Shown here in pieces: positions 4,832 through 34,335 of a DNA stretch of 64,000 nt (its first letter is position 1; each line of letters begins with the position of its first letter). Under the pieces are notes generated by a model. That model saw only the letters and a program-made list of their open reading frames with translations. It had not been told where the DNA came from and ran no database searches. The position numbers were made by a program, and so were the translations under genes. Where the stretch lies: positions 160,001 to 224,000 of the forward strand of contig OZ251518.1 of assembly GCA_965242965.1 (NCBI GenBank). The letters are read 5' to 3'. The DNA comes from Candidatus Poribacteria bacterium. Lineage in GTDB: Bacteria; Poribacteria; WGA-4E; WGA-3G.

Positions 4832-7800
4832 CTACTCAGCCTTCGCGCGTTTGATGACTACCAGCGTTAAATCATCATACTGCTCCGTTTCGCCGACAAA
4901 TTCGTGGACATCCTCAACGATGCGGTTAATTATCTCCTCTGCGGTGTAGTCTGCCGGCATGTCGGAGACTAACTCCATTAACCGCTCCGTGCCATACATC
5001 TCGTCCTCGGCATCAAGTGCCTCGATGATGCCATCGGTATGGAAGATGAAAGCATCCCCTTCTTCCAACGTGAAGGAAACGGCATCGTAACGTGCTCTAC
5101 GCATGCTGCCGAGCGGCAGATCGCTGCTCTCTATTTCTGTCGTCTCTGCGTCCCGTTTCAGGAGAGGATAAGGCTGTCCGCCGTTGGCGTAGTCGATTTT
5201 TCCACTATCAGGATCCAGCACGACGAGGTTCAACGCGATGAAACTCGGTCCGTAGAGTCGCGGTGCCAACCCGATGTTCAGTTCATGGAGAATGACATCT
5301 GCCTCGGAACGGAAGCGCGTGACTTCATAAAGCATGCCGTTCGTCAGCACTGCACTCATTGCGCCGCGCAACCCCTTGCCCGCGGCATCGGCGACAGCGA
5401 TGACGGTTTGTCCGTCAGCAACGGTGAGGTAATCGAAGAAGTCTCCGCCTACCTGTTTTGCGGGGACAGACATCCCGGCGACATCAAACCCTGGAATATC
5501 GGGTGCTTCCTCTGGCAGCAATGCCATTTGTATGGTTTGCGCTTCATCCAACTCGGCGCGAATACGCGCAATCTCCGCTTCTTCCTGTTTGCGCACCTCA
5601 GCTTGCAGCTGCATCGTGCGCCGCCGAGTCATGTAAAGGCGCACCAGCAAGGTGATGACTGCGGTGATGAAGATAAGCGTCGGCAGATAACTCCGCCATT
5701 TTGTCCAAAACGGCTGCGAGATGGTAACGTTTAACACCGCCGGGCGCTGCGTATACGGCGTGCCATCGCGCAGTGCTTTGATAAGAAACGTGTAAGTGCC
5801 GGATTTCAATCCCTCATAATGGACTTGCAATGCCCCTGCCGTGCTTTGCAACTGCTGCGTAATCCCACCGTAGGATGCCTGTTGATGCGTTTGGACAGAA
5901 GATGCCGCTGTATCTGTCAACTGCGCCGCGGTCTCCGCCGAAATGTCTGTCCACGCGTTCGTGTCTAAGCCGACTAACTTAAATTGATAGCCGAGTGCCT
6001 CTCGCAGCGGGCTGATGCCTTGGAAATCGATGGTGATAGCATCAGCGCGCGATGGAAGCGTCACACCCGAAATTTCATCTACATCACCGTAACCGGAAGG
6101 TTTGAGGTGACTCGCAACCCCCGGTCTTCTAGAAAGCGAGTAGGTTCTGTCCGCCTCAATAGACGCTAAACGACAGAACGGAAGTCCGCCGCGCTCCGGC
6201 GTATAGCGTGTAGCACCGCCTTCCGTCGCGAACCACATCTCCTTCTCTTTGGATTCGTAAACATGAGAGACGTTGTTATGCCGGAGTCCGTCCTTAGTCG
6301 TGATGACATAAAAGGTTTCGCCGTCATAGCGCACGACCCCACCGCCCCACGTGGCGAACCAGATATTACCCCAACTATCCTCCTTGACATCACGCACGTC
6401 GTCGACAAGAAACCCATCTTTCGCTGTCGCATAAGTCATGACGTTTTTGCCATCGTATTTGACGGCACCGTGCTCCGTTGCCAACCACAAATCGCCAGAC
6501 TTTGATGCCAGTCGCGCGCGGACAGGGGCAACGTCAATGTCACTGTTGGTGATGGGCACGGTTTCGTCATCGCTGATGCGGTAAGTCGTCAACTGTTTTT
6601 CAAAGAGGAAGGTTACTTCTTGGGATACCTCCAACGGGTTCATCCCTTCGCTGGCGTTCCGTGTTTGCCAGACTGCAACTGGGAGCGAACGCGCAGCATG
6701 CTCTGTTTCCACCCATCGCTCTTCATCGCTTTCTGTCCACATCCACCGCGTCAATTTCCCGGTAGCACTGCTGAAAAACCATTTGATTTCAAAATCGGAT
6801 GCGAAGGATTTGCCCAGCCTTTCAGGACTGCTGGTATGCACCAATGCGGCGGCGTTCAACGGCAAGATTTCCGGTTGTAGGTTGCGTCCGCCTGTTGCTG
6901 AATAACGCTTCACCTGTCCGTTGTCAAAGTGGCACCAAAGTCGGCCCAGCTTATCCGTGTGGAGAGACGTAATCGCCGAGGGTGCATGGCGCATCTCGCG
7001 AGTCTGCTGAAACAGAACCTTGACGAACCCTGCTTCCGGCGAGAGCCACTGCAACCCGGTTGCATCCGGTTTGAAGAGCCATCCGCCTAAAGCAAGCCAC
7101 GGTTTCTCGCCTTCGGACAGGAGCACCTCAACGTTACGCGTATTGAGTCTTTCGCCGCCGGGCCCGATTTCAACGGCGACAGAGAGAGAAACCTGGTCAA
7201 ATTTGCCGTTGGCATATCGGAAGAAGGTGTATCGCGTTGCATCGCGGCCGGGTGCCGGGCGGTTGATGAACCAGACATGCTCATCAACTTCAAAGATTTT
7301 GATAATCTCCGTGCGTCTTCTAAAGTTATTGAAACTTTCTGCGCGTCTTCTTCCGATTGCGTTCGCCGCTCTCCTCCGTCGCGGTTCACCCGATGTCTCT
7401 ATCCGCAATCGATGCGTTGATAGCGCGGTTATTCCCTCTTCAGCGAGTGCTTCGTCGGCTGTGGCGGCTGCGTCGTAAAGCGCGACACCACCGGGAATGC
7501 TAAACCAGAGTCGTCCGCGGCTATCCTCATACACGTGTCGGATGCTTTCCCCACCGATGCCGGCGCGGGTTGAATAATTCCTCATCGCCGGTCTGGGGTT
7601 GTAGGCAGTCACACCGTTATCGTGTCCAAACCAGAGCGTGCCGTCTATCGCCTCGAAAATAGAGAGAATCCGGTCGCTGCCGAGTCCATCATCGGCATAA
7701 TAGTCGGTTTGGACAAGGTCTGCATCGTATTGATGCGCGCCACGCTGGCCGGCAAACCAAAGATTCCCGGTTCTGTCTTCCATTGCGAGGAAGCCGCGCA

Positions 7801-24886: not shown

Positions 24887-25562
24887 TTAATCGATTTCGC
24901 CTGCCTGCTGCAAAGCATCATTAATAATAGCGTCTCCGAGATACATGCCGTTATCACGTAGTTGCATTAAAAGTGAGCGTGTTTCATATTTCGATGTGTT
25001 CAGTAGGAGAGACCTCGGGGCCCGATTCGATCTCCGGTAGGAGAGCCCTCCTGGTCTTGATTTTACCGTAGCGCGGGGGTCCTCGGATGCTATACGCGCA
25101 TCCGAGAGGGTTTCCCCCGCGTTGTGCATCGTCAAAAGGTGGCGTTTTAGGTCCTTTAGGTCCTACATGTCTATAGCAGCACGTGTCAGCCCGTTTTCAG
25201 GATTCTTCGCAGACGCGCCGGCTATAGACATTAAGGTCCTACGGACCTAAGAGACGTTTTTCCGCAGCGCGAGGCATGGCGAGGGAAACCCGCTCGCATG
25301 CGCGTGTGGCATCCGAGGGCCCTCGCCCTACGATGAAGGGGAGGCGGCCTCCACACCCGTAGCGCGGGGGCCTGTCCCCCGCGATCGTTGGGTAACCCGG
25401 AGCACGGCGAGGGACAGGCCCTCGCCCTACGATGAAGCGGGGGCTTTCAACTTCCTCAGGAATCAATACTTTTGTATAGAGTTCCCGTAACAGAGCGAGA
25501 TGGCCGAGTTGCCAGAGCGCGACAAGTGGGCTATTGTTGATAATTACTGGCTTTTCGGGCAT
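24887..25562 (-). pseudogene. DUF3368-family PIN-domain toxin, middle replaced by repeat element
   Basis: N-terminus MPEKPVIINNSPLVALWQLGHLALLRELYTKVLIPEEV (25562-25450) and C-terminus LLMQLRDNGMYLGDAIINDALQQAGE (24974-24887) separated by about 470 bp of REP mosaic. Confidence 0.75.
24975..25445. mobile_element. Element with a single TIR (copy J) and REP mosaic
   Basis: GAGCGTGTTTCATATTTCGATGTG left end, matching copy E; no right TIR seen. Confidence 0.65.
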
Positions 25563-26943
25563 TTGCAACATCCTCTGCAAGTTCTTCTGCCGTCAGGCGA
25601 ATAATGGAGAGGCCATAATCCCCCATAACGAACATAAATTCGGAACGTGACATTCCAGCGAGTCGTGCCGAAAGCCCAGTGCTGAGCTCGCAGGTGTCAT
25701 AGGCTTTCAGTGCCAATTTCAGACGGAGCTCCCTTTGCTGTTTCCTAAAAGCGACATTTAACCGGCTATGCTCTGTGAGAGACGTGGTGCCTGTAAGTTG
25801 TGCCTGCAAGAGGCAGTGCAGTTCTTCGTCGGAGATACCATCGCCCTTGATAACCTCAAGTGCCTTTCCGGGGGTTAACATCGCGACGATGTGTTCCGGC
25901 ATTTGGGTGCCGACTCTTTTCTCAAAATCGGCGATGCTTTCGTATCGGGTATGAAACAACGCGCGGATGTCCACCCCTAGGAGTGCCGCGACAGTCCAGT
26001 CAGCTTTGACTTTCGTCCAATCTCCGACTTCACACCACGCGACACCACACTGCCCATACGCCACTCCTGCATCTGCATCCAGTTGAATCGCTCTGTGGAA
26101 ATCTTCGGTAGCCTTGTAAATCTCACCTTGGTTGAGGTAAGCACTACCCCGCTCGGTATAAACCGCCGCGAGTGCGGGATTTGAACCTAACCCAGGCTGA
26201 TAGTTTTGGAGGGTGTAAATTTCCTTGCCGCGCTGCCGATAAACGGTGTCACGCTGGTAATGCTCCCCGACATAATTCGGGGACAATTGAAGCACCCTCT
26301 GAGCGTCTTCAAGTGCCTGCTCATAGTTATCTTTGACGTAGTAGTGGTGACTGCGATGATAATATGCATCGGCATTATTGGGATTCAACTGAATCGCCTT
26401 GTTATAGTCTGCGCCTGCAAGGTGTGTATCCCCGCTCCGGCGATGAGCGAGCCCCCGGATGTAGTAAGCATCGGCATCATCGGGACATAAATGTATGGCC
26501 CTGTCGTAACTGGCGATGGCGAGTTTATGTGTCCCTTTCCGTGCGTAAGCGATGCCGCGATTGAGAAAGGCTTCGGCGAGCCCCCGGTTGCATCGTATCG
26601 CCGTGTTATATTGAGCCATGGCCTCGTCAATTTTGCCTCTCTGTCCGTGAGCAACACCGAGATTGACATACGCTCTAGCGTAACCGGGTTCAAGGCGTAT
26701 CGCCGTGTTAAAGTCTTCAAGTGCCTCGTCAAACTTGCGGATATTTTCGTAAGCCACCCCGCGGTTGTTATAGATTCTAGCGTCGCGCGGATTTGAGGCG
26801 ATTGCCCGCGAATATGCCGCTATCGCCTCTTGGGGTTTCCCTTCCATCATTAAGGCGTTTCCTTGTTCAAACGCCGCCGATTCAACAACGGAGAGGGAAG
26901 GTAACGCGCTTGTAGTCTGTATTTCAGTTGATGATATTCCCAT
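25531..26943 (-). CDS. TPR-repeat protein with C-terminal UPF0175-like antitoxin domain
   Basis: About 8 TPRs (AY.NRG.AY...); C-terminal LKLALKAYDTCELSTGLSARLAGMSRSEFMFVMGDYG...EELAEDV. Confidence 0.75.
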   Translation of the reverse strand: MGISSTEIQTTSALPSLSVVESAAFEQGNALMMEGKPQEAIAAYSRAIASNPRDARIYNNRGVAYENIRKFDEALEDFNTAIRLEPGYARAYVNLGVAHGQRGKIDEAMAQYNTAIRCNRGLAEAFLNRGIAYARKGTHKLAIASYDRAIHLCPDDADAYYIRGLAHRRSGDTHLAGADYNKAIQLNPNNADAYYHRSHHYYVKDNYEQALEDAQRVLQLSPNYVGEHYQRDTVYRQRGKEIYTLQNYQPGLGSNPALAAVYTERGSAYLNQGEIYKATEDFHRAIQLDADAGVAYGQCGVAWCEVGDWTKVKADWTVAALLGVDIRALFHTRYESIADFEKRVGTQMPEHIVAMLTPGKALEVIKGDGISDEELHCLLQAQLTGTTSLTEHSRLNVAFRKQQRELRLKLALKAYDTCELSTGLSARLAGMSRSEFMFVMGDYGLSIIRLTAEELAEDVANARKASNYQQ

Positions 26944-27690: not shown

Positions 27691-28809
27691 TCATGAAAGA
27701 CTCGCTAAAAAAAGCCGCCCCACATCAACGTTATCGTCAAAATCTGTTGCCGCCCAAGGGCTGTTATAGCCGATGACCGGCACGTAACTTTCGTGACGTG
27801 AACCGTGTGAACGGACAGAGACAGGTTCCTCCACCACGTCTAATTCGCCGAAGACGGTATCTTTATCCGCCAACACGAAGATGTCGCCGATGCGTTCACG
27901 ATGGAGCCGGAACTCTCGCGCAGCCTCTTCGGTGGGATAAACTTCTTCAACGCCGTGCGCTTGCAGGAGCATCTGCACAGCGCGCTCGGTATCCGAACGG
28001 TTTTCAAGGAAAATATAGGCGGCACCGCCTAAGTTACTGTGGTGTGCAACATACCGGTCTTTGATAATCGGGATGGCACTTGCAGGGACACCGTGTTGCG
28101 TCAACCATCGGCCCGGGTCTAGTGCCGTCGTCTTCGGCAACATCCCGTGGTCTGCCGTGATATAAATCTCGCGTTCTGGGTTATCATCAACGATGTCCCC
28201 AATGATGCTGTCCAGCACCGCGAGATGCAGCTGAGATAACTCAGCCTCCGGCGGGTAAGCGTGTTGCACCCAATCGGTTGTCGTGCAGTAAACCAGTTCT
28301 ACGTCGTGCTTTCGCAAGGTATGCCGCACTGCACGCAGCAGCCACCAATTGATTTCAACCGAGTAGATAGGTTCAACGGGGCCAGCGATTTCAATGAATT
28401 CCGGCGGTGGTGCTTCAGCGGCGACAGCGATATCCGCGCCTGCGCAGAGCATCCGCAACAACTTTTTCTTGGTGACAAAGAGCGCGGTTTTCTCGGCGAA
28501 CCCGGCGGCTTTGGCAACTTCAAACAGCGTTGGCGCGGACAGAAAACGTCCATCTGTGCATAAATCCTCAATAAACGTTCCGACACCGGTTTCCCTATCC
28601 ACGTAGTAATTCGTAGTGATGCCGTGTGTTTCTGGAAACGTTCCCGTCGCGATGCTAACGTTGTTGACGTTCGTCACGGATGGGATAACGGCATTAGCGT
28701 GCCGATAGAACCCGGCTTCCGCCAATTTTCGGATGTTAGGAATGTCGCTCGCCGCGAGGTAGTCGTGACTTCCTGCGTCAATGCAGAGAATGAGAATTTT
28801 CCGTTTCAT
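27691..28809 (-). CDS. Alkaline-phosphatase superfamily, phosphonoacetate hydrolase-like
   Basis: ILCIDA, PSVTNVNNVSIATG, TTDWVQH, ITADHGM, RSHG. Confidence 0.75.
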   Translation of the reverse strand: MKRKILILCIDAGSHDYLAASDIPNIRKLAEAGFYRHANAVIPSVTNVNNVSIATGTFPETHGITTNYYVDRETGVGTFIEDLCTDGRFLSAPTLFEVAKAAGFAEKTALFVTKKKLLRMLCAGADIAVAAEAPPPEFIEIAGPVEPIYSVEINWWLLRAVRHTLRKHDVELVYCTTTDWVQHAYPPEAELSQLHLAVLDSIIGDIVDDNPEREIYITADHGMLPKTTALDPGRWLTQHGVPASAIPIIKDRYVAHHSNLGGAAYIFLENRSDTERAVQMLLQAHGVEEVYPTEEAAREFRLHRERIGDIFVLADKDTVFGELDVVEEPVSVRSHGSRHESYVPVIGYNSPWAATDFDDNVDVGRLFLASLS

Positions 28810-28872
28810 GCTGATGTGCTCCTGCTTGCAAGAAATTATAGCATATCCGCGGCGAAATTGCGAAAATAAATT

Positions 28873-31800
28873 GAGGGTGTTTCATAAGCGCGGGGGCCTG
28901 TCCCCCGCGAGCGTCCCGTAGGAGAGACCTCCCGGTCTCGATTCCTCTGCGAACGTCCGATGGCGCGCCGTAGGAGAATCAGACCTCCTCACCTCTGTAG
29001 GTCAGGAGTGCCTGATCCTGACCCGTTCGGGAGCAGGCGCTCCCGAACTACAGAGTTATGAAACACCGTCCCGATTACCGTAGCGCGGGGGCCTGTCCCC
29101 CGCGAGCGTCCCGTAGGAGAGACCTCCCGGTCTCGATTCCCCCGCGAACGTCCGATGGCGAACCGTAGGAGAGTCAGATCGCCTCACCTCTGTAGTTCAG
29201 GAGCGCCTGCTCCTGACCCGTTCGGGAGCAGGCGCTCCCGAACTACAGAGTTATGAAACACCGTCCGGTTCCCGTAGCGCGGGGGCCTGTCCCCCGCGAT
29301 CGTGGCACGGCGAGGGACAGGCCCTCGCCCTACGGTGAAAAGGGCCGTTCTTCGTCCTACGCGAGGAGAGGCGGCAACTCCCCGACCAACCGCACCGTCT
29401 CTTGACTCACATGCATCACCTGCCCGACCAACCGAACAATATATTGCGCATCCGAACCATTCGGATCGGAGACAATACCACTCCCATTCGGATCGGGTTT
29501 GACGCGATACCGATCGATGAGCCATTCTAATGCCGAACGCCTCCCCAAACGATAATCGAATACCTCTGGCGGGATATCCACTATCGTCAGAGATTCATTG
29601 TAACGGAGCTGCGTTTTGTCTTTGGATAATTCCATCTTCTCAACGCGCCAATTGAGCGGCGGGGTTTCGATGAGGTTTGGCATCACATCAAGGGTTTCAT
29701 AATTGACGTGCAAATCTGCCAAAGCGCGCCCGATGTCAACGAACCCCCAGAAATCCGGGGCGAAAGGAATATGCGGCAAGTCATGCTTGAGGTTGACCTG
29801 ATACGTCTCGCGATAATCAGGATGATGCAAAACAGCGTAATTGTAGTGGAAAATGTCCCACTTTGTGATGGTTTCGTCGGCGTAATGCGCGCGGAAGTTT
29901 TGCAATGCCCAGTTGGTGATGTTCTCTCGACGGTTCGTGCCATCCTCATCGTAGGTGTAGAAGGGGAAGCACTGATTCGCATCAAGAGTAATGATCGAAC
30001 TACTCGGAAGAACGTTTGCCATACAACACCAAAAAGGCGCGCGTCCGCCAACCCCAGGGACACAGATAACCCGATTCTCCTGTTCGGTTTCTGGTGTTGG
30101 AAAGATGGATGGCATCACATAGACGCACTCGTTCATCATCCGATCGAAGTAGAGGTGCGTTTTGGTGAACGGCCGGTAAAGGGCGCGGCGCACTTTTTCC
30201 GGCGAAAACTCGGCGAGATGGCCTTGGCGCAAACGGGACATGAGACTTCGCGTCCACTTAATCCGCGTTTTATCGGTATCCACAAAATCTTTGACGTTGA
30301 TGTCCCGGTCGCGCCGCCGATCCCATCTGACTACCTCGCTGTTGTAGTTGTCCATCATCCGCGTCATGTTTTCTGCCAACGTTTCCGGACTGAAATGGTA
30401 AACCCATGCGTCGCGGCTCGTGGAAACACCGACGCTGTAAGTTTTAAAAATCGTGCCTTCTGTCTCGCCTTTCGCCGCCTTTGCCGCTTTGGTGCCCATC
30501 GGGATGAACGTGTTAAAATCGGTTTCAAACCCTTCGGTGAGCCACATCTGGCGCGCATTCGGTTGAATCTCTCGCCACTTGACATTGCCGACGTGTGCGT
30601 TTTCTGTGAGAAATTGGAACGTGCGCTCTTTCGGCAGTGCCGCCGCTGCATCGCTATAGAGAATCCGTGCAGGCCCTTGCCGAGGTCCTTTTGTCTTCAC
30701 TAAGAGATTGATACTCACGCCGACGGTAATTCCGAACACATTGGCATCGCCCGGTTGGCCCTTGCGCATGTTGCCCCCGAGGTCCAAAATGTGGAGCACG
30801 TCAAATTCCTCGGCGAGACACTGCCGCAAGCCATCAAACATCCTGCCATCAATAAAACTGTTGTTCGTGACGAAAGCGATCATGCCTTCTGGTCCGATTT
30901 TATCCGATGCCCAGCGGAGAGATTTCACGTAGGGATCGTAAACTTTATTATTGAGTTGCGCGGTGGAGGCGGCGACGTAAGTGGCGCGCACACGGTTATC
31001 CACCGCCTCATGCGGCCGATTCTTGTTATTATCGTTCTCGTTCTGCTGACTCGCATTGTAGGGTGGATTCCCGATGATGACGAACATCGGTGTTTCCTTC
31101 TGCTCTTGAACGCGCATCGTGTTTTCCGGTGTGAAATAGGCGAATTCCCCGGTCTGGTTCGGCGCGTCCATGAGCCCGAAGGTATCGAACGTATCCACAA
31201 AACAGATATACTTGAACGGTTCATACCGTCCCATTTTCTCGTAATAGGCGTGTTCGATGTTCATCGTGGCGATGTAATAGGGCAAAAGCATTACCTCGTT
31301 GCAGTGCAACTCGCCCTTATATTTCTTGTCCAGCGCGATGCCGGGGATGTCCTGCATCAGGCGCACGATGAAGTTGCCGGTGCCGACGAAGGGATCGATG
31401 ATATGCACCCCGGTATCGGATAGTGACTTCCCGAAGTGGGTTTTCAGGAGATGTTGGACGCTGTTTACCATGAAGTCAACGATGGGCTGCGGTGTGTAGA
31501 CAACGCCGTGTCTATCGGCATCCTTGACAGAAAAGTCTTGGAAGAAGCGTTGATAAAGCGTGTTGAGAAACTCCTGCTTCTGCGAGAAGTCGGACAAGGT
31601 GCTGGCGGTTTTCTCAATGGCATCGTAAAAAGGTTTGAGTTCGCTGAAAAATTGTGAGCGGTTGAGTGCCTCCCGGGTCAGGACATCAATCACCTTCTCG
31701 ATCTCGCTAGCGATGACGTTTCGTCGCGTGAAATCGGGGTTATCAAAAACGGTGCGGAAGATGCGTTCCGTCATCAGGTGCTGCGCGAGCATCCGTTCAA

Positions 31801-32792
31801 CTTCTGTCTCGGCGAGGTTGGGATTGATTGCGTCTCTGCACTGCTGATGAAAATGCGCGAATGCCTCGCGGAATTCGGGGGTATTCTGGCGTTCGGTTTG
31901 GATGAGTGCCTCCAATTTCGCGCCGAGTTCGGGAATGGTATCTTGGAAGGTATTGACGGCGGCATCCCACTCGGCGAGATTCTCCTCGGTGTAGGCGAAG
32001 AATGCTTCAAGGAGTTGGATGAGATTGCGCGGCTCGGTGATGTCCAGGTCGAGGACAAGCGCGCCGTTTTGATAGAGTATGGCGCGATGCGGCGTTTGGA
32101 AGATGATGTTTTTGGCGGGATAGCCCGTGGCAAATTTCTGTTGGGCTTCGGCGGGGAGATCATCGAGGAGATCTTTCGCCTCCCAGTGGCCGAAGATGAG
32201 TCCGAAGTCGGTGACGATTTCGCCATCGATGCGGATGTGGTTGCCGTTGGGGGTTGTGCGCGTCTTCTCGCATATCAGCGTGAGGCCGCGTAATGTTGCG
32301 TAGTGTTGCAGCAGGTTTTGGAAGGCGACGCGAACGGCACCTTCATGTTGCGCGCCGAGTTTTGTGAACTGTTTCAGTTCGGCGTAGTAGTTTTTTATGG
32401 GTTTATGTGTGGGTTTGATGTTGAGCATCGTTTTTCTCCGTGTTTTGATTGGGTTATGAGCATTTTAACGTAAGTCAAAATAAATTGCAAGGGATTAAAA
32501 AACGCCGTCCCTTACCGTAGGGCGAGGGCCTGTCCCTCGCCATGCTGCGGTCTACCGGACGATCGCGGGGGACAGGCCCCCGCGCTACGGGCCCGGATGG
32601 GGTTCTCCTCGCCATGCCGTTCGGGATCAGGCGATCCCGAACTACGGTCACTGGGGCCTGAAACGATCGCGAGGGAAACCCGCTCGGATGCGCGTATGGC
32701 ATCCGAGGGCCCACGCGCTACGGGACTCTGTAGTTTGCGATCGCCTGATCGCAAATGGCCGCGCGACGGTGAGCAAGTTATGAAACACCCTC
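28873..32792. mobile_element. 3.9-kb TIR-bounded element (copy D) carrying an R-M gene
   Basis: 15-bp perfect TIRs GAGGGTGTTTCATAA; 8-bp direct repeat AATAAATT at 28865-28872 and 32793-32800; REP mosaics on both sides of the cargo. Confidence 0.75.
29357..32428 (-). CDS. Single-chain restriction-modification enzyme (PD-ExK nuclease + gamma-class N6A MTase + Type ISP-like C-terminal specificity domain; no helicase)
   Basis: RIDG...GHWEAKD; GVVYTP; DPFVGTGNF; IIGNPPYN; YRPF; SALEWLIDRY. Confidence 0.85.
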   Translation of the reverse strand: MLNIKPTHKPIKNYYAELKQFTKLGAQHEGAVRVAFQNLLQHYATLRGLTLICEKTRTTPNGNHIRIDGEIVTDFGLIFGHWEAKDLLDDLPAEAQQKFATGYPAKNIIFQTPHRAILYQNGALVLDLDITEPRNLIQLLEAFFAYTEENLAEWDAAVNTFQDTIPELGAKLEALIQTERQNTPEFREAFAHFHQQCRDAINPNLAETEVERMLAQHLMTERIFRTVFDNPDFTRRNVIASEIEKVIDVLTREALNRSQFFSELKPFYDAIEKTASTLSDFSQKQEFLNTLYQRFFQDFSVKDADRHGVVYTPQPIVDFMVNSVQHLLKTHFGKSLSDTGVHIIDPFVGTGNFIVRLMQDIPGIALDKKYKGELHCNEVMLLPYYIATMNIEHAYYEKMGRYEPFKYICFVDTFDTFGLMDAPNQTGEFAYFTPENTMRVQEQKETPMFVIIGNPPYNASQQNENDNNKNRPHEAVDNRVRATYVAASTAQLNNKVYDPYVKSLRWASDKIGPEGMIAFVTNNSFIDGRMFDGLRQCLAEEFDVLHILDLGGNMRKGQPGDANVFGITVGVSINLLVKTKGPRQGPARILYSDAAAALPKERTFQFLTENAHVGNVKWREIQPNARQMWLTEGFETDFNTFIPMGTKAAKAAKGETEGTIFKTYSVGVSTSRDAWVYHFSPETLAENMTRMMDNYNSEVVRWDRRRDRDINVKDFVDTDKTRIKWTRSLMSRLRQGHLAEFSPEKVRRALYRPFTKTHLYFDRMMNECVYVMPSIFPTPETEQENRVICVPGVGGRAPFWCCMANVLPSSSIITLDANQCFPFYTYDEDGTNRRENITNWALQNFRAHYADETITKWDIFHYNYAVLHHPDYRETYQVNLKHDLPHIPFAPDFWGFVDIGRALADLHVNYETLDVMPNLIETPPLNWRVEKMELSKDKTQLRYNESLTIVDIPPEVFDYRLGRRSALEWLIDRYRVKPDPNGSGIVSDPNGSDAQYIVRLVGQVMHVSQETVRLVGELPPLLA

Positions 32793-32799
32793 AATAAAT

Positions 32800-32828
32800 T
32801 TGATACGGTTTTCAAAATATGGTATCAT
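32800..32828 (+). promoter_or_regulatory. Probable sigma70 promoter of argB
   Basis: TTGATA-N17-TATCAT with TG extension. Confidence 0.55.
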
Positions 32829-32886
32829 AAATATAAATACAATTTCATTCTGGACAACACTGGTTTGGAGGAGTTAACAGAAATAG

Positions 32887-33765
32887 ATGGATAGAACTGC
32901 TGATGTGCTGATAGAAGCACTTCCTTATATCCGCCGGTTTTATGATAGGCAAATCGTGATTAAATACGGTGGTGCGGCGATGGAGGAAGACGCGCTCATC
33001 CACTCTGTCATGGAGGACATCGTGCTGATGAAATATGTCGGCATGCGCCCGATTGTCGTGCATGGCGGCGGGCCGCGGATTAGCGCGTGGATGGACAAAG
33101 TCGGGAAAGAGGCGCAATTTGTGCAGGGATTGCGCGTCACCGATGCCGAAACCGTTGAAATCGCCGAAATGGTGCTTGCTGGCTCGATTAACAAAGGCAT
33201 CGTCTCGCGGATTAACCAACACGGCGGGAAAGCTATCGGGCTCTCCGGAAAAGACGCAAACCTCGTCGTCGCCGAAAAACAGGAGATGCACTTCACCGAC
33301 GAAGAAGGACACCAGACTTCGCTTGACTTGGGTTTCGTCGGGAAGATTATCGGCATCAACACGGAGCCGATTATTACGCTGGACAAAGCGGGATATATTC
33401 CTGTCATCGCGCCAAACGGCGTTGGCGTTGATGGGCAAACCTATAACATTAACGCTGATATCATGGCCGGCGAAATCGCTTCCGCGCTTCAGGCAGAGAA
33501 ACTCATCATGCTGACAGACACGCGCGGCATCCTTCGCGATGTCGGCGATGAAAACTCGCTGATGCCCACCATCCATCTCAAGGAGCTTGACTCCTTAATT
33601 GAGGCGGGGCTCATCGTCGGGGGGATGCTTCCCAAAGTCGAAGCCTGCGCGACGGCACTCGTCGGCGGCGTGCATAAGACGCACATTATTGATGGCAGGA
33701 TTCCGCATTCTCTGTTGCTTGAAGTCTTCACCGAAGGCGGTGTCGGCACCGAAATTATTAGGTAA
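32887..33765 (+). CDS. argB: Acetylglutamate kinase
   Basis: VIKYGGAAM, VVHGGGP, YNINAD, GGMLPKVEAC. Confidence 0.97.
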   Translation: MDRTADVLIEALPYIRRFYDRQIVIKYGGAAMEEDALIHSVMEDIVLMKYVGMRPIVVHGGGPRISAWMDKVGKEAQFVQGLRVTDAETVEIAEMVLAGSINKGIVSRINQHGGKAIGLSGKDANLVVAEKQEMHFTDEEGHQTSLDLGFVGKIIGINTEPIITLDKAGYIPVIAPNGVGVDGQTYNINADIMAGEIASALQAEKLIMLTDTRGILRDVGDENSLMPTIHLKELDSLIEAGLIVGGMLPKVEACATALVGGVHKTHIIDGRIPHSLLLEVFTEGGVGTEIIR

Positions 33766-33768
33766 AAT

Positions 33769-34335
33769 GAGGGTGTTTCATATTTCGATGTGTTCGGTAG
33801 GGGAGCCCTTGGGGCGCGATTTCCGGTAGGAGAGACCTCCTGGTCTCGATGTGTCCCCGTAGGAGAGCCCTCCTGGTCTCGATGCGTTTTGTTGCTGCGC
33901 GTATCGGGACAAGGATGTCCCTCCTACCGGCAGGCATCGGGCCCCTCTGTAGTTTGTGATCGCCTGATCACAAACAGGTCAGGATCAGGCGATCCTGACC
34001 TACAGAGGTGACGCGGTCTGACAGCAAAACGATGGCAAGGACCTGTCCCTCGCCCTACGATGAAGGGGGCGTTTTTTATCGTAGCGCGGGGGCCTGTCCC
34101 CCGCGATGTCGATCGTCACGATGTGTGTTTCCCCCTCTGTAGTTTGTGATCGCCTGATCACAAACAGGTCAGGATCAGGCGATCCTGACCTACAGAGGTG
34201 ACGCGGTCTGACAGCAAAACGATGGCGAGGGGAACCCGCTCGGATGCGCGTGTGGCATCCGAGGGCCCAAGCCCTACGGTGAAGGGGAGATTTTTGCCGC
34301 CCTATTGCATCGAGACCGGGAGGTCTCTCCTACCC
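33769..34335. mobile_element. Element with left TIR (copy E), REP mosaic with internal ~90-bp duplication
   Basis: GAGGGTGTTTCATAT 3 nt after the argB stop; 33945-34036 repeated at 34135-34226. Confidence 0.7.

Follow-up and report, generated by a model that had tools for sequence, protein, structure and literature searches.

The stretch of DNA analysed here (the window) comprises 64,000 nucleotides of a Candidatus Poribacteria genome and contains, between two divergent genes, a non-autonomous element of 3920 bp (28873-32792) that carries a restriction-modification (R-M) gene. The left flanking gene (27691-28809, minus strand) encodes a phosphodiesterase or phosphonoacetate-hydrolase-like protein of 372 aa (Pfam Phosphodiest, 1.1e-33; the NCBIfam model hydr_PhnA gives 170 bits, under its cut-off of 407), and the right flanking gene (32887-33765, plus strand) is argB, for acetylglutamate kinase (TIGR00761, 248 bits against a cut-off of 151); both lie outside the element. 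A promoter-like site precedes each of them: TTCGCA-18-TATAAT for the hydrolase-like gene (28835-28864, minus strand; 10 of 12 matches, with an upstream TG) and TTGATA-17-TATCAT for argB (32800-32828, plus strand; also 10 of 12 matches, in the same arrangement as in G001, the genome of a sister species in the same genus). The -35 box of the hydrolase-like gene adjoins the left copy of the target-site duplication, and the argB promoter is intact because its -35 box begins at the last base of the duplication. The insertion point lies between the two divergent -35 boxes, and neither promoter is broken.

Ends and internal layout of the element

The element is bounded by 15-bp terminal inverted repeats: GAGGGTGTTTCATAA on the left (28873-28887, plus strand) and its exact reverse complement on the right (32778-32792, minus strand), with 0 mismatches in either. 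Outside them stand two copies of an 8-bp target-site duplication, AATAAATT (28865-28872 and 32793-32800), and no flanking repeat longer than 8 bp is found at the locus. The original prediction had claimed perfect terminal repeats and an exact duplication, and both can be read directly from the bases. The junctions of the locus coincide with the outermost bases of both perfect ends, and 8 bp is the duplication length proper to the family of short elements (MITEs) from which the ends come.

The left arm contains a complete mini-unit. Unit 1 (28873-29070, plus strand) is a 198-bp mini-element made up of the left end, REP-type hairpins and an internal right end, RE1 (29056-29070), while unit 2 (29071-29265, plus strand) is a tandem 195-bp copy without the left end that is closed by a second internal right end, RE2 (29251-29265). 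As had been predicted for these decayed ends and tandem mini-copies, RE1 and RE2 each retain 14 of the 15 bases of the end motif, and the tandem 195-bp units, compared as 28887-29071 against 29082-29266 (repeat family D1), are 95% identical. Further REP-type hairpins (29266-29356) lie 3' of the R-M gene. On the far side of the gene, a decayed right-end-like motif in the orientation of the true right end (RE3*, 32495-32509, minus strand; 11 of 15 bases) precedes a right arm of REP-type mosaics (32510-32777). In the right arm all end motifs are right ends of one orientation; because an inward-facing left end is missing, the element is not a classical two-copy composite. The third copy of AAAATAAATTG (32477-32487) was considered as the relic duplication of a separate right-hand MITE and rejected, since it forms the -35 box and spacer of the R-M promoter and recurs, slightly altered, in all 7 paralogues.

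The R-M gene is the only ORF in the element with a family match; six other ORFs of at least 113 aa match 0 Pfam families, so no transposase is encoded inside. Searches of Pfam and alignment with a PDB structure confirm that the ends enclose, besides the REP mosaics, a nuclease-methyltransferase-specificity gene of 1023 aa.

The cargo gene and its paralogues

The cargo gene (29357-32428, minus strand) encodes nuclease, coupler, N6A-methyltransferase and specificity domains, and its promoter-like site (32462-32490, minus strand; TTGCAA-17-TAAAAT) lies inside the element; the stretch ATAAATTGCAAGG of this promoter recurs in all 7 close paralogues with 1-3 base changes. The protein matches the Pfam families Type_ISP_C (5e-102), ISP_coupler (4e-19) and N6_Mtase (9e-10), and aligns over residues 12-1019 with DrdV (PDB 7lo5; E 1.1e-213). 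Its motifs are RIDG...WEAK, DPFVGTG and NPPY: the first, as RIDG..WEAKD, is aligned to RPDG..WESKD of DrdV, and the other two are conserved. Judging from these matches, the product combines an N-terminal PD-(D/E)xK nuclease, an N6A methyltransferase of the gamma type and a recognition domain at the C-terminus in a single chain; it looks complete and is presumably active. Only about 170 residues lie ahead of the coupler and no ATPase or helicase match was found in Pfam, and by its predicted domains the protein is without an ATP-dependent motor, and so apart from Type ISP enzymes. The architecture and mechanism of DrdV are treated in the portions of a preprint drawn on here (10.1101/2021.01.06.425610). 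By homology, the cargo enzyme is expected to recognise an asymmetric site, of which it would methylate a single strand, and to cleave unmodified DNA a fixed distance away once several bound molecules have come together.

The DrdV-like Type IIL family is represented in this genome by 22 loci, 20 of them intact, with diverged recognition domains, and the closest paralogue of the cargo gene is 85% identical. Homology common to the paralogues covers 29263-32676, starting on the left at about 29263 and reaching its right limit at 32590-32676; it stops inside the envelope at REP-type sequences. One paralogue, p2489, also shares the right arm: the last 52 nt of that arm (32726-32777), a sub-terminal sequence, are matched there over 51 nt at 94%, the only near-full-length match among 309, and the end at p2489 lies at most 3 nt from the insertion boundary seen against G001. 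This likeness supports a link by descent between the R-M gene and the end, and argues that the two moved together.

The original prediction had asked whether other methyltransferase genes lie between these terminal repeats. A complete envelope was found at none of the six other close paralogues, where both an end pair and a duplication were sought (at most 4 mismatches; 8-mers within 10 kb), and p1210 is bracketed by a direct repeat of about 20 bp, TTTGTGCAAA(A)TTATTTTT, and not by an end pair. A second copy of the R-M element at another site was not found, and of 23 loci recovered from metagenomes with the R-M protein as query, the best has 60% identity and none contains the end motif.

Precise insertion and origin of the element

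In a search of forty relatives, the hydrolase-like gene and argB proved adjacent in seven (G001, G002, G005, G009, G013, G015 and G023); of these, G001 and G002 were inspected at the level of single bases. In G001, homology with the left flank runs to window base 28872 and breaks exactly at the left end; the intergenic region holds a single AATAAATT, read straight through into the argB promoter, and no R-M gene. A single target copy between adjacent genes identifies the whole 3920 bp as a precise insertion. The related genome thus supplies what had been predicted, namely direct adjacency around one target copy and divergent promoters joined once the element is removed. In G002, G005 and G009 the genes are separated by 384-1217 bp, and among the matches listed no R-M match falls between them in any of the seven; an R-M gene at this locus without the terminal repeats, which the prediction had named as the contrary case, did not occur there. 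Parts of the stretch are contained in 13 public runs, and Logan contigs of four of these were examined. Contigs covering 28495/28550-28883 and 32788-33300 extend into the two filled junctions, and the empty-site joint is absent among the 15 joints listed; since short contigs break at repeats, they are uninformative on excision or empty alleles. Joints from 28942 to 32515/32516 were disregarded, their sides being shorter than 30 nt and within repeats.

The ends belong to an abundant MITE family. If at most 2 mismatches are allowed, the window contains 17 copies of the end motif where 0.05 are expected; genome-wide, 989 ends are found. The family prefers the target consensus A-N-T-T-A-A-N-T; exact duplications of 8 bp flank 62 of 290 short end pairs and those of 9 bp flank 25 of 290, and members whose duplications are confirmed measure 129-1094 bp and differ widely in their REP interiors. 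Two unrelated family ends carry identical 8-mers with a chance of 0.00106. Among 196 +/- end pairs 1-5 kb apart, 0.21 exact-duplication matches are expected and two are seen (Poisson P = 0.019), and both are precise insertions relative to G001. A second cargo element (G000:C1:54311-57212; 2902 bp) likewise has perfect ends, flanked by the duplication ATTTAAGT; its passenger is an ankyrin/dockerin gene of 588 aa that has a promoter of its own, and the corresponding site in G001 is cleanly empty. A gene resembling this ankyrin cargo (C1:1710129-1712343) has no flanking ends in the donor orientation.

An intact IS occurs in G022, a relative in the same family, in seven copies, all of which contain an open frame of 353 aa and match the query with an equal score. 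The copy that was read measures 1107 bp and has perfect ends identical to those of the element and an 8-bp duplication, AACTAATT. Its frame scores 39.1 bits on PF13612, a DDE transposase domain (cut-off 27), and 54.9 bits on the IS982 model NF033520, under the cut-off of 130, so that the assignment extends to the IS5/IS982 superfamily only and the exact family is not settled. The MITE family therefore shares its terminal repeats and duplication length with an autonomous DDE-transposase IS. A matching transposase was sought in the present genome (G000; assembly 94.66% complete), where NF033520 and a protein search each gave 0 matches and tblastn of the G024 frames gave only short matches of 37-50%. 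Among 173 +/- end pairs 0.9-4 kb apart (at most 3 mismatches), the ORFs of at least 200 aa listed, judged by eye from their first 60 residues, include no obvious transposase. An ORF beside an end variant (G006:C106) was rejected as a transposase partner: it is an IS605 OrfB/TnpB-type gene, and it is located outside the short MITE. As no matching transposase was found in the assembly, the R-M element is probably immobile at present.

We think it probable that 28873-32792 is a non-autonomous DNA transposon, a mobile insertion cassette on the ends of this MITE family, that moved as one unit. We infer that a DDE transposase acted on it in trans, supplied from the 1.1-kb IS5/IS982-superfamily IS with identical ends. 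Of the several right ends in the same orientation, the enzyme would have recognised the outermost, together with the one left end, and everything between these two would have travelled in one step: the two tandem mini-units, the R-M gene with its promoter and hairpin terminators, and the right arm. The segment would have landed in the AT-rich AATAAATT between the divergent -35 boxes, with duplication of 8 bp. Movement as a unit is favoured by the ankyrin element, with its same ends and empty site, and by the arm and end shared with p2489. Of the earlier proposal that the envelope captured and mobilised a defence gene, the mobilisation is upheld by the ends, the duplication, the empty site and p2489, and capture in one step would fit them; the envelope is not shown to be a general route for spreading specificities, since 0 of the 6 close paralogues have it complete.

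The homology of the paralogues ends inside the envelope at REP-type sequences, and for this reason the gene could have entered a resident MITE by recombination. A short MITE would first have inserted at AATAAATT, and the R-M module, with its REP-type flanks, would later have been copied into its interior from another R-M locus, the REP or unit sequences found at the borders of all paralogues serving as sites of recombination or gene conversion. Such a history agrees with the changeable interiors of the family and with the points at which homology with six paralogues stops (left, 29263; right, 32590-32676). The closest paralogue is only 85% identical, so neither model can point to a recent donor. 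However, the same events would be needed independently at the ankyrin element, the R-M element and p2489 would each require a MITE with the same unique 52-nt arm and then an R-M module, and no MITE-only allele was seen at the site in G001 or G002. We regard this order of events as unlikely.

It is far less probable that the transposon ends are incidental passengers at the R-M locus. The direct repeat that p1210 has in place of an end pair would suit that explanation, as would the insertion of R-M genes with long target duplications documented in the sections of PMC2853133 used here, but the junctions at this locus fall exactly at the outer bases of perfect ends, with a duplication of family length and no longer flanking repeat. 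Scarcely credible is a resident R-M gene bracketed by two unrelated MITE insertions whose matching 8-mers coincide in an AT-rich preferred target: the family's target preference is strong, chance alone should yield about 1.5 matching 8-mers in the 1377 pairs that lie 1-30 kb apart genome-wide, and a 27-kb pair with a 9-bp match (C1:3286789-3313850) is such a coincidence, rejected as an element because its interior is syntenic in G001, but the adjacent genes, break at the left end, single target and missing R-M gene in G001 contradict it, as do the 384-1217 bp intervals of the three relatives, without R-M genes among the matches listed.

A wider and more doubtful reading treats the MITE family, by now an orphan lacking its transposase, as a general gene shuttle in this sponge-associated lineage: any DNA with a left end on one side and a distal right end on the other may move, and the lineage-specific DrdV-like Type IIL expansion would have been seeded in this way. 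If that were true, transposon-driven copying followed by specificity drift would be a way to a large and varied restriction repertoire.

Significance and relation to known systems

The locus shows, unusually cleanly and to the exact base, a complete defence gene that was moved by transposon ends not its own. It offers a concrete candidate route for duplicating R-M genes within one genome, here with about 20 intact paralogues of one single-chain enzyme and diverged recognition domains, and the insertion between divergent promoters, neither of them broken, illustrates how a genome can tolerate such cargo.

Elements of this kind have been known since 2010, when Furuta, Abe and Kobayashi (PMC2853133), in the sections considered here, described transposon-like R-M units that lack a transposase and are enclosed by terminal inverted repeats; the 8-bp direct repeats flanking them occur as one copy at the empty site of a related genome. 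The units include a Type IIG single-chain gene in N. gonorrhoeae, and those sections name no matching IS. The present element resembles them in its R-M gene between inverted repeats, lack of a transposase, 8-bp duplication and empty site. It differs from the units as presented there in that its 15-bp ends come from a family of 989 ends, an intact IS with identical ends exists in a relative, and the cargo is a DrdV-like Type IIL gene of a 22-member paralogue family. End family, target preference and matching autonomous IS can be named together here, which those sections of the 2010 report could not do.

Mobile insertion cassettes (MICs), such as MIC231 of Bacillus cereus and the TnXax1-IR cassettes of Xanthomonas, are described in the relevant parts of PMC4337579 as passenger genes between IS-type inverted repeats that are mobilisable by a matching transposase in trans, with solo or multiple ends at one locus permitting alternative structures. 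The IS-type ends, the lack of an own transposase and a target duplication of the parent element's length are common to the present element and to MICs as characterised there. Its parent is of the IS5/IS982 superfamily, with an 8-bp duplication, whereas those MICs derive from IS231 or Tn3-family elements, and its passenger is an R-M gene; a matching transposase in the same cell, part of that description, was not found in this assembly (94.66% complete).

The cargo protein is close to DrdV of Deinococcus radiodurans (PDB 7lo5/7lvv) in length (1023 against 1029 aa) and, going by the parts of the preprint on its architecture, in domain order (10.1101/2021.01.06.425610). The D...ExK, GTG and NPPY motifs are conserved, but the recognition domain differs and the cargo gene sits inside a mobile element. 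With Type ISP enzymes the protein shares homologous coupler, methyltransferase and recognition domains (E 1e-143 and 1e-137; residues 190-1020), but those enzymes have 1406-1578 aa and a helicase-like ATPase motor, whereas the cargo protein has 1023 aa and no ATPase match. Integron mobilisation units are bracketed by two complete MITE copies, and short transposase-less elements provide their moving ends. There, as here, the ends of short transposase-less elements flank a gene; unlike those units, the present element has one left end and several right ends, in a single orientation.

The element and the site that it occupies

The element (window positions 28873–32792; 3920 bp) is best explained as a non-autonomous transposon carrying a restriction-modification (R-M) gene between a hydrolase-like gene and argB. 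Its left terminal repeat GAGGGTGTTTCATAA (28873–28887, + strand) has an exact reverse complement at 32778–32792, and the target duplication AATAAATT is read directly at 28865–28872 and 32793–32800; the perfect 15-bp inverted ends and exact 8-bp duplication of the original prediction are thus present as described. So is the single-chain R-M gene, which an ORF scan recovers as the sole long ORF (29357–32428, − strand; 1023 aa). Six other ORFs of at least 113 aa, which lie in other frames and overlap the R-M ORF, match no Pfam family, and no transposase is encoded anywhere inside the element. A motif search finds two right-end copies near the left end, RE1 (29056–29070) and RE2 (29251–29265), each matching at 14 of 15 bases. 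Each ends one of two tandem 195-bp units, which share 95% identity (repeat family D1), in keeping with the decayed internal right ends and tandem mini-copies proposed earlier. With RE3*, a decayed right-end motif at 32495–32509 in the same orientation as the true right end, this makes, in all, a single left end and four same-orientation right-end motifs in the element (RE1, RE2, RE3* and the true end). A third copy of AAAATAAATTG, at 32477–32487, was considered as a relic duplication and rejected; it forms the −35/spacer in the promoter that belongs to the R-M gene itself (TTGCAA-17-TAAAAT), and the stretch recurs with small changes in all seven members of the gene's close paralogue group.

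Forty relatives were searched with the 6-kb region around the element. In a same-genus relative (G001), the match to the hydrolase-like gene covers query positions 1–1182 and ends at window position 28872, the base before the left end, with argB 290 bp from the end of the match. The G001 junction reads ...gcgaaaaATAAATTtgacatagttttcaaaacgtggtatcat..., which is the window's two flanks joined through a single target copy, and the 3920 bp plus 8 bp must therefore have been inserted precisely, in the lineage of the window. The precise empty site bears out the expectation that the hydrolase-like gene and argB would adjoin across one target copy in relatives. The two genes are also close in G005, G009, G013, G015 and G023 (gaps of 384–2820 bp), with no R-M match between them among the matches listed; the finding named beforehand as contrary evidence, relatives with the R-M gene here lacking terminal repeats, does not appear among those matches. 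A promoter scan predicts −35 boxes at 28864 for the hydrolase-like gene and at 32800 for argB. The element therefore occupies a gap of a few bases between two divergent −35 boxes; its removal joins divergent promoters, as had been proposed, and the duplication keeps both predicted boxes intact.

The hydrolase–argB spacer is a repeat-insertion hot spot that has been colonised independently in sister species. Downstream of the argB promoter, the G001 spacer (L013 1430–1700, G001:C114) holds a tandem repeat of about 120 bp. A second relative, G002, has 1.2 kb of different REP mosaics at the same spot, where the end motif is absent; REP-type hairpin arrays occupy 1.1 kb of this spacer (L014 2100–3140). 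Thirteen public runs, mostly labelled sponge metagenome, contain parts of the stretch, and contigs from 4 of the 13 enter both filled junctions but are too short to bear on empty alleles. Elsewhere in the window, 25531–26943 (− strand) encodes an unusual fusion: a protein of 470 aa in which many TPR repeats are followed by a C-terminal domain of the small-antitoxin-like family UPF0175.

A DrdV-like enzyme and its paralogues

Pfam matches on the 1023-aa protein are Type_ISP_C (5e-102), ISP_coupler, N6_Mtase and Eco57I. The best solved-structure match is 7lo5, which we take to be DrdV (1029-aa chain; E 1.1e-213; residues 12–1019). Aligned motifs pair RIDG...WEAKD with RPDG...WESKD, DPFVGTG with DPATGTG and IGNPPYNASQQNENDNNKNR with IGNPPYRANQANENDNNKNR in the window protein and 7lo5, respectively. 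LlaGI and LlaBIII, both of Type ISP, align from residue 190 onward only; their ATPase motor is missing from the window protein. Because of the structure alignments and motif pairings, the window protein is read from its sequence as a complete Type IIL enzyme of the DrdV kind that lacks the Type ISP motor, and it is predicted to be active. DrdV itself is a 1029-residue Type IIL enzyme whose methyltransferase lies centrally, between an N-terminal endonuclease and a C-terminal recognition domain, and which cleaves only once several site-bound molecules have assembled (10.1101/2021.01.06.425610).

The window's own genome (G000) has a very large repertoire of this one single-chain enzyme type. A tblastn search with the protein finds 28 loci, 22 of them near-full-length; in 20 of these the ORF runs to at least 1021 aa. 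The window's gene and six others form a close group of seven, at 83–88% amino acid identity to the window protein (tblastn), the six being 81–85% identical to the window's gene in nucleotides. Within the group, the nuclease and methyltransferase domains are 87–97% identical in protein and the RIDG..WEAK, DPFVGTG and NPPY motifs are kept in all seven, while identity in the recognition-domain core (residues 700–860) is 53–75%; the seven are likely to differ in specificity, to judge from these alignments. A metagenome scan with the protein returned relatives of at most 60% identity, and the end motif is in none of their loci. One R-M paralogue in G000, p1210, is bracketed not by an end pair but by a direct repeat of about 20 bp, TTTGTGCAAA(A)TTATTTTT (G000:C1:1209975–1210005 and 1214180–1214210; L020 ~1975–2005 and 6180–6210), which may mark an insertion whose target duplication is long.

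The end family and its insertion sequence

The end motif occurs at 17 sites in the window at up to two mismatches, against 0.05 expected, and G000 (5.70 Mb) holds 989 ends, 396 of them perfect. In the 8 bases beyond the ends there is a palindromic target preference, A-N-T-T-A-A-N-T (at the 396 perfect ends: −8 A 56%, −6 T 72%, −5 T 63%, −4 A 74%, −3 A 61%, −1 T 85%), which the window's duplication matches. There are 352 adjacent +/− end pairs in G000; the 290 shorter than 1 kb include 62 with an exact 8-bp direct repeat, 36 that agree at 7 of 8 bases and 25 with a 9-bp repeat that is exact. Ends at up to one mismatch number 807 in G000, 8 in G001, 1 in G002 and 0–15 in the other 38 relatives; the MITE expansion in G000 is a lineage-specific burst. 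Most intergenic regions of the window hold family ends (33769–33783, right after the argB stop codon, and 15 other sites), and the end pairs 10252/10639, 17575/17826 and 18867/19160 resemble ordinary short members.

In the G000 assembly, which is 94.66% complete, tblastn for a matching transposase gave only short matches of 37–50%, and neither the IS982 profile NF033520 nor a transposase protein search gave any match. With its 807 ends at up to one mismatch, G000 thus holds hundreds of orphan MITEs, and no matching transposase was found there. The family's autonomous form, an insertion sequence (IS), is present in two relatives. The G024 element (G024:C222:77–1184; 1108 bp) has perfect ends identical to those of the window, flanks AGTTAATT and AGTTAAGT, and one long frame that a single in-frame stop interrupts. 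In G022 there are seven IS copies, all of which keep an open frame of 353 aa; the sole copy read (G022:C1:2765144–2766250, L061 927–2033; 1107 bp) has identical perfect ends and an exact 8-bp duplication, AACTAATT. The G022 protein, a DDE transposase, has a DDE domain (PF13612, 39.1 bits; cut-off 27), and since its best NCBIfam match, IS982, falls under the cut-off, the label is kept at the level of the IS5/IS982-superfamily. In G006, an IS605 OrfB/TnpB-type gene with a Cas12f1-like TNB domain (G006:C106, L031 545–1699) adjoins a 198-bp MITE whose ends are a G-variant of the motif.

Probable movement of the gene within the envelope

The same 8-mer is found at two unrelated family ends at a rate of 0.00106 (200,000 random pairs), which predicts about 1.5 matches by chance among the 1377 +/− end pairs lying 1–30 kb apart in G000, so a duplication alone would be unconvincing. 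An unplanned control is a 27-kb end pair that matches over 9 bp; a sister genome is syntenic across the interior of this pair, so the match is coincidence. At 1–5 kb (196 pairs), 0.21 exact-duplication matches are expected and two observed (P = 0.019): the window's element and a 2902-bp element with perfect ends and duplication ATTTAAGT (G000:C1:54311–57212; L015 811–3712).

Although the present structure alone does not separate travel inside the envelope from later entry into a resident MITE, the gene probably moved within the envelope by one-step transposition. Later entry is unlikely, even though homology with the six close paralogues runs from 29263 to 32590–32676 and ends in REP-type repeats inside the envelope, and none of the six has both a full pair of ends and a duplication. 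Against it stands the 2902-bp element, a second family member with gene cargo and a clean empty site in G001 (single ATTTAAAT). Its cargo, a 588-aa ankyrin-repeat and dockerin protein with its own predicted promoter (TTGACA/TATGAT), resembles a G000 gene at 1.71 Mb (C1:1710129–1712343; 79–86% identity). The right arm also counts against later entry, being held in common with the R-M paralogue p2489: the 52 nt inside the right end (32726–32777) have 309 matches in the genome, near-full length only in p2489 (51 nt, 94%), where the match directly abuts that locus's own end, at most 3 nt from the point where G001 homology resumes. An R-M gene and this same end therefore arrived together at two loci.

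One-step transposition is further favoured by a rare right-end type, in which the end is followed by C-N-G-N-T-N-C-C-G-T-A-G (22 of 989 ends pass a looser three-motif test), and which recurs beside the 3′ side of the window's R-M gene and its paralogues p2790, p3359 and p1356, as well as beside that of a separate 490-aa DNA methyltransferase gene (C1:5062149–5063621). Such junctions, with CCGTAG and a REP hairpin, lie at window positions 29056–29078 and 29251–29277 and at G000:C1:2793800, 3359650, 1355990 and 5061992. If a transposase used the left end together with the nearest right end, a 198-bp MITE would move; if it used the outermost right end instead, the R-M gene would move. The original observation is confirmed and its interpretation supported.

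Furuta et al. 2010 describe R-M genes that lie between inverted repeats and have 8-bp duplications, the sites being empty in a related genome; one case is a Type IIG gene of N. gonorrhoeae, and the authors note that the action of a transposase in trans could not be ruled out (PMC2853133). Mobile insertion cassettes (MICs) are likewise an established class, and the one left and four right ends of the window's element resemble the use of alternative ends that is discussed for MIC clusters (PMC4337579). New relative to these reports is the tie between an R-M envelope and a named, high-copy end family for which a matching IS exists, together with base-exact evidence and the host lineage.
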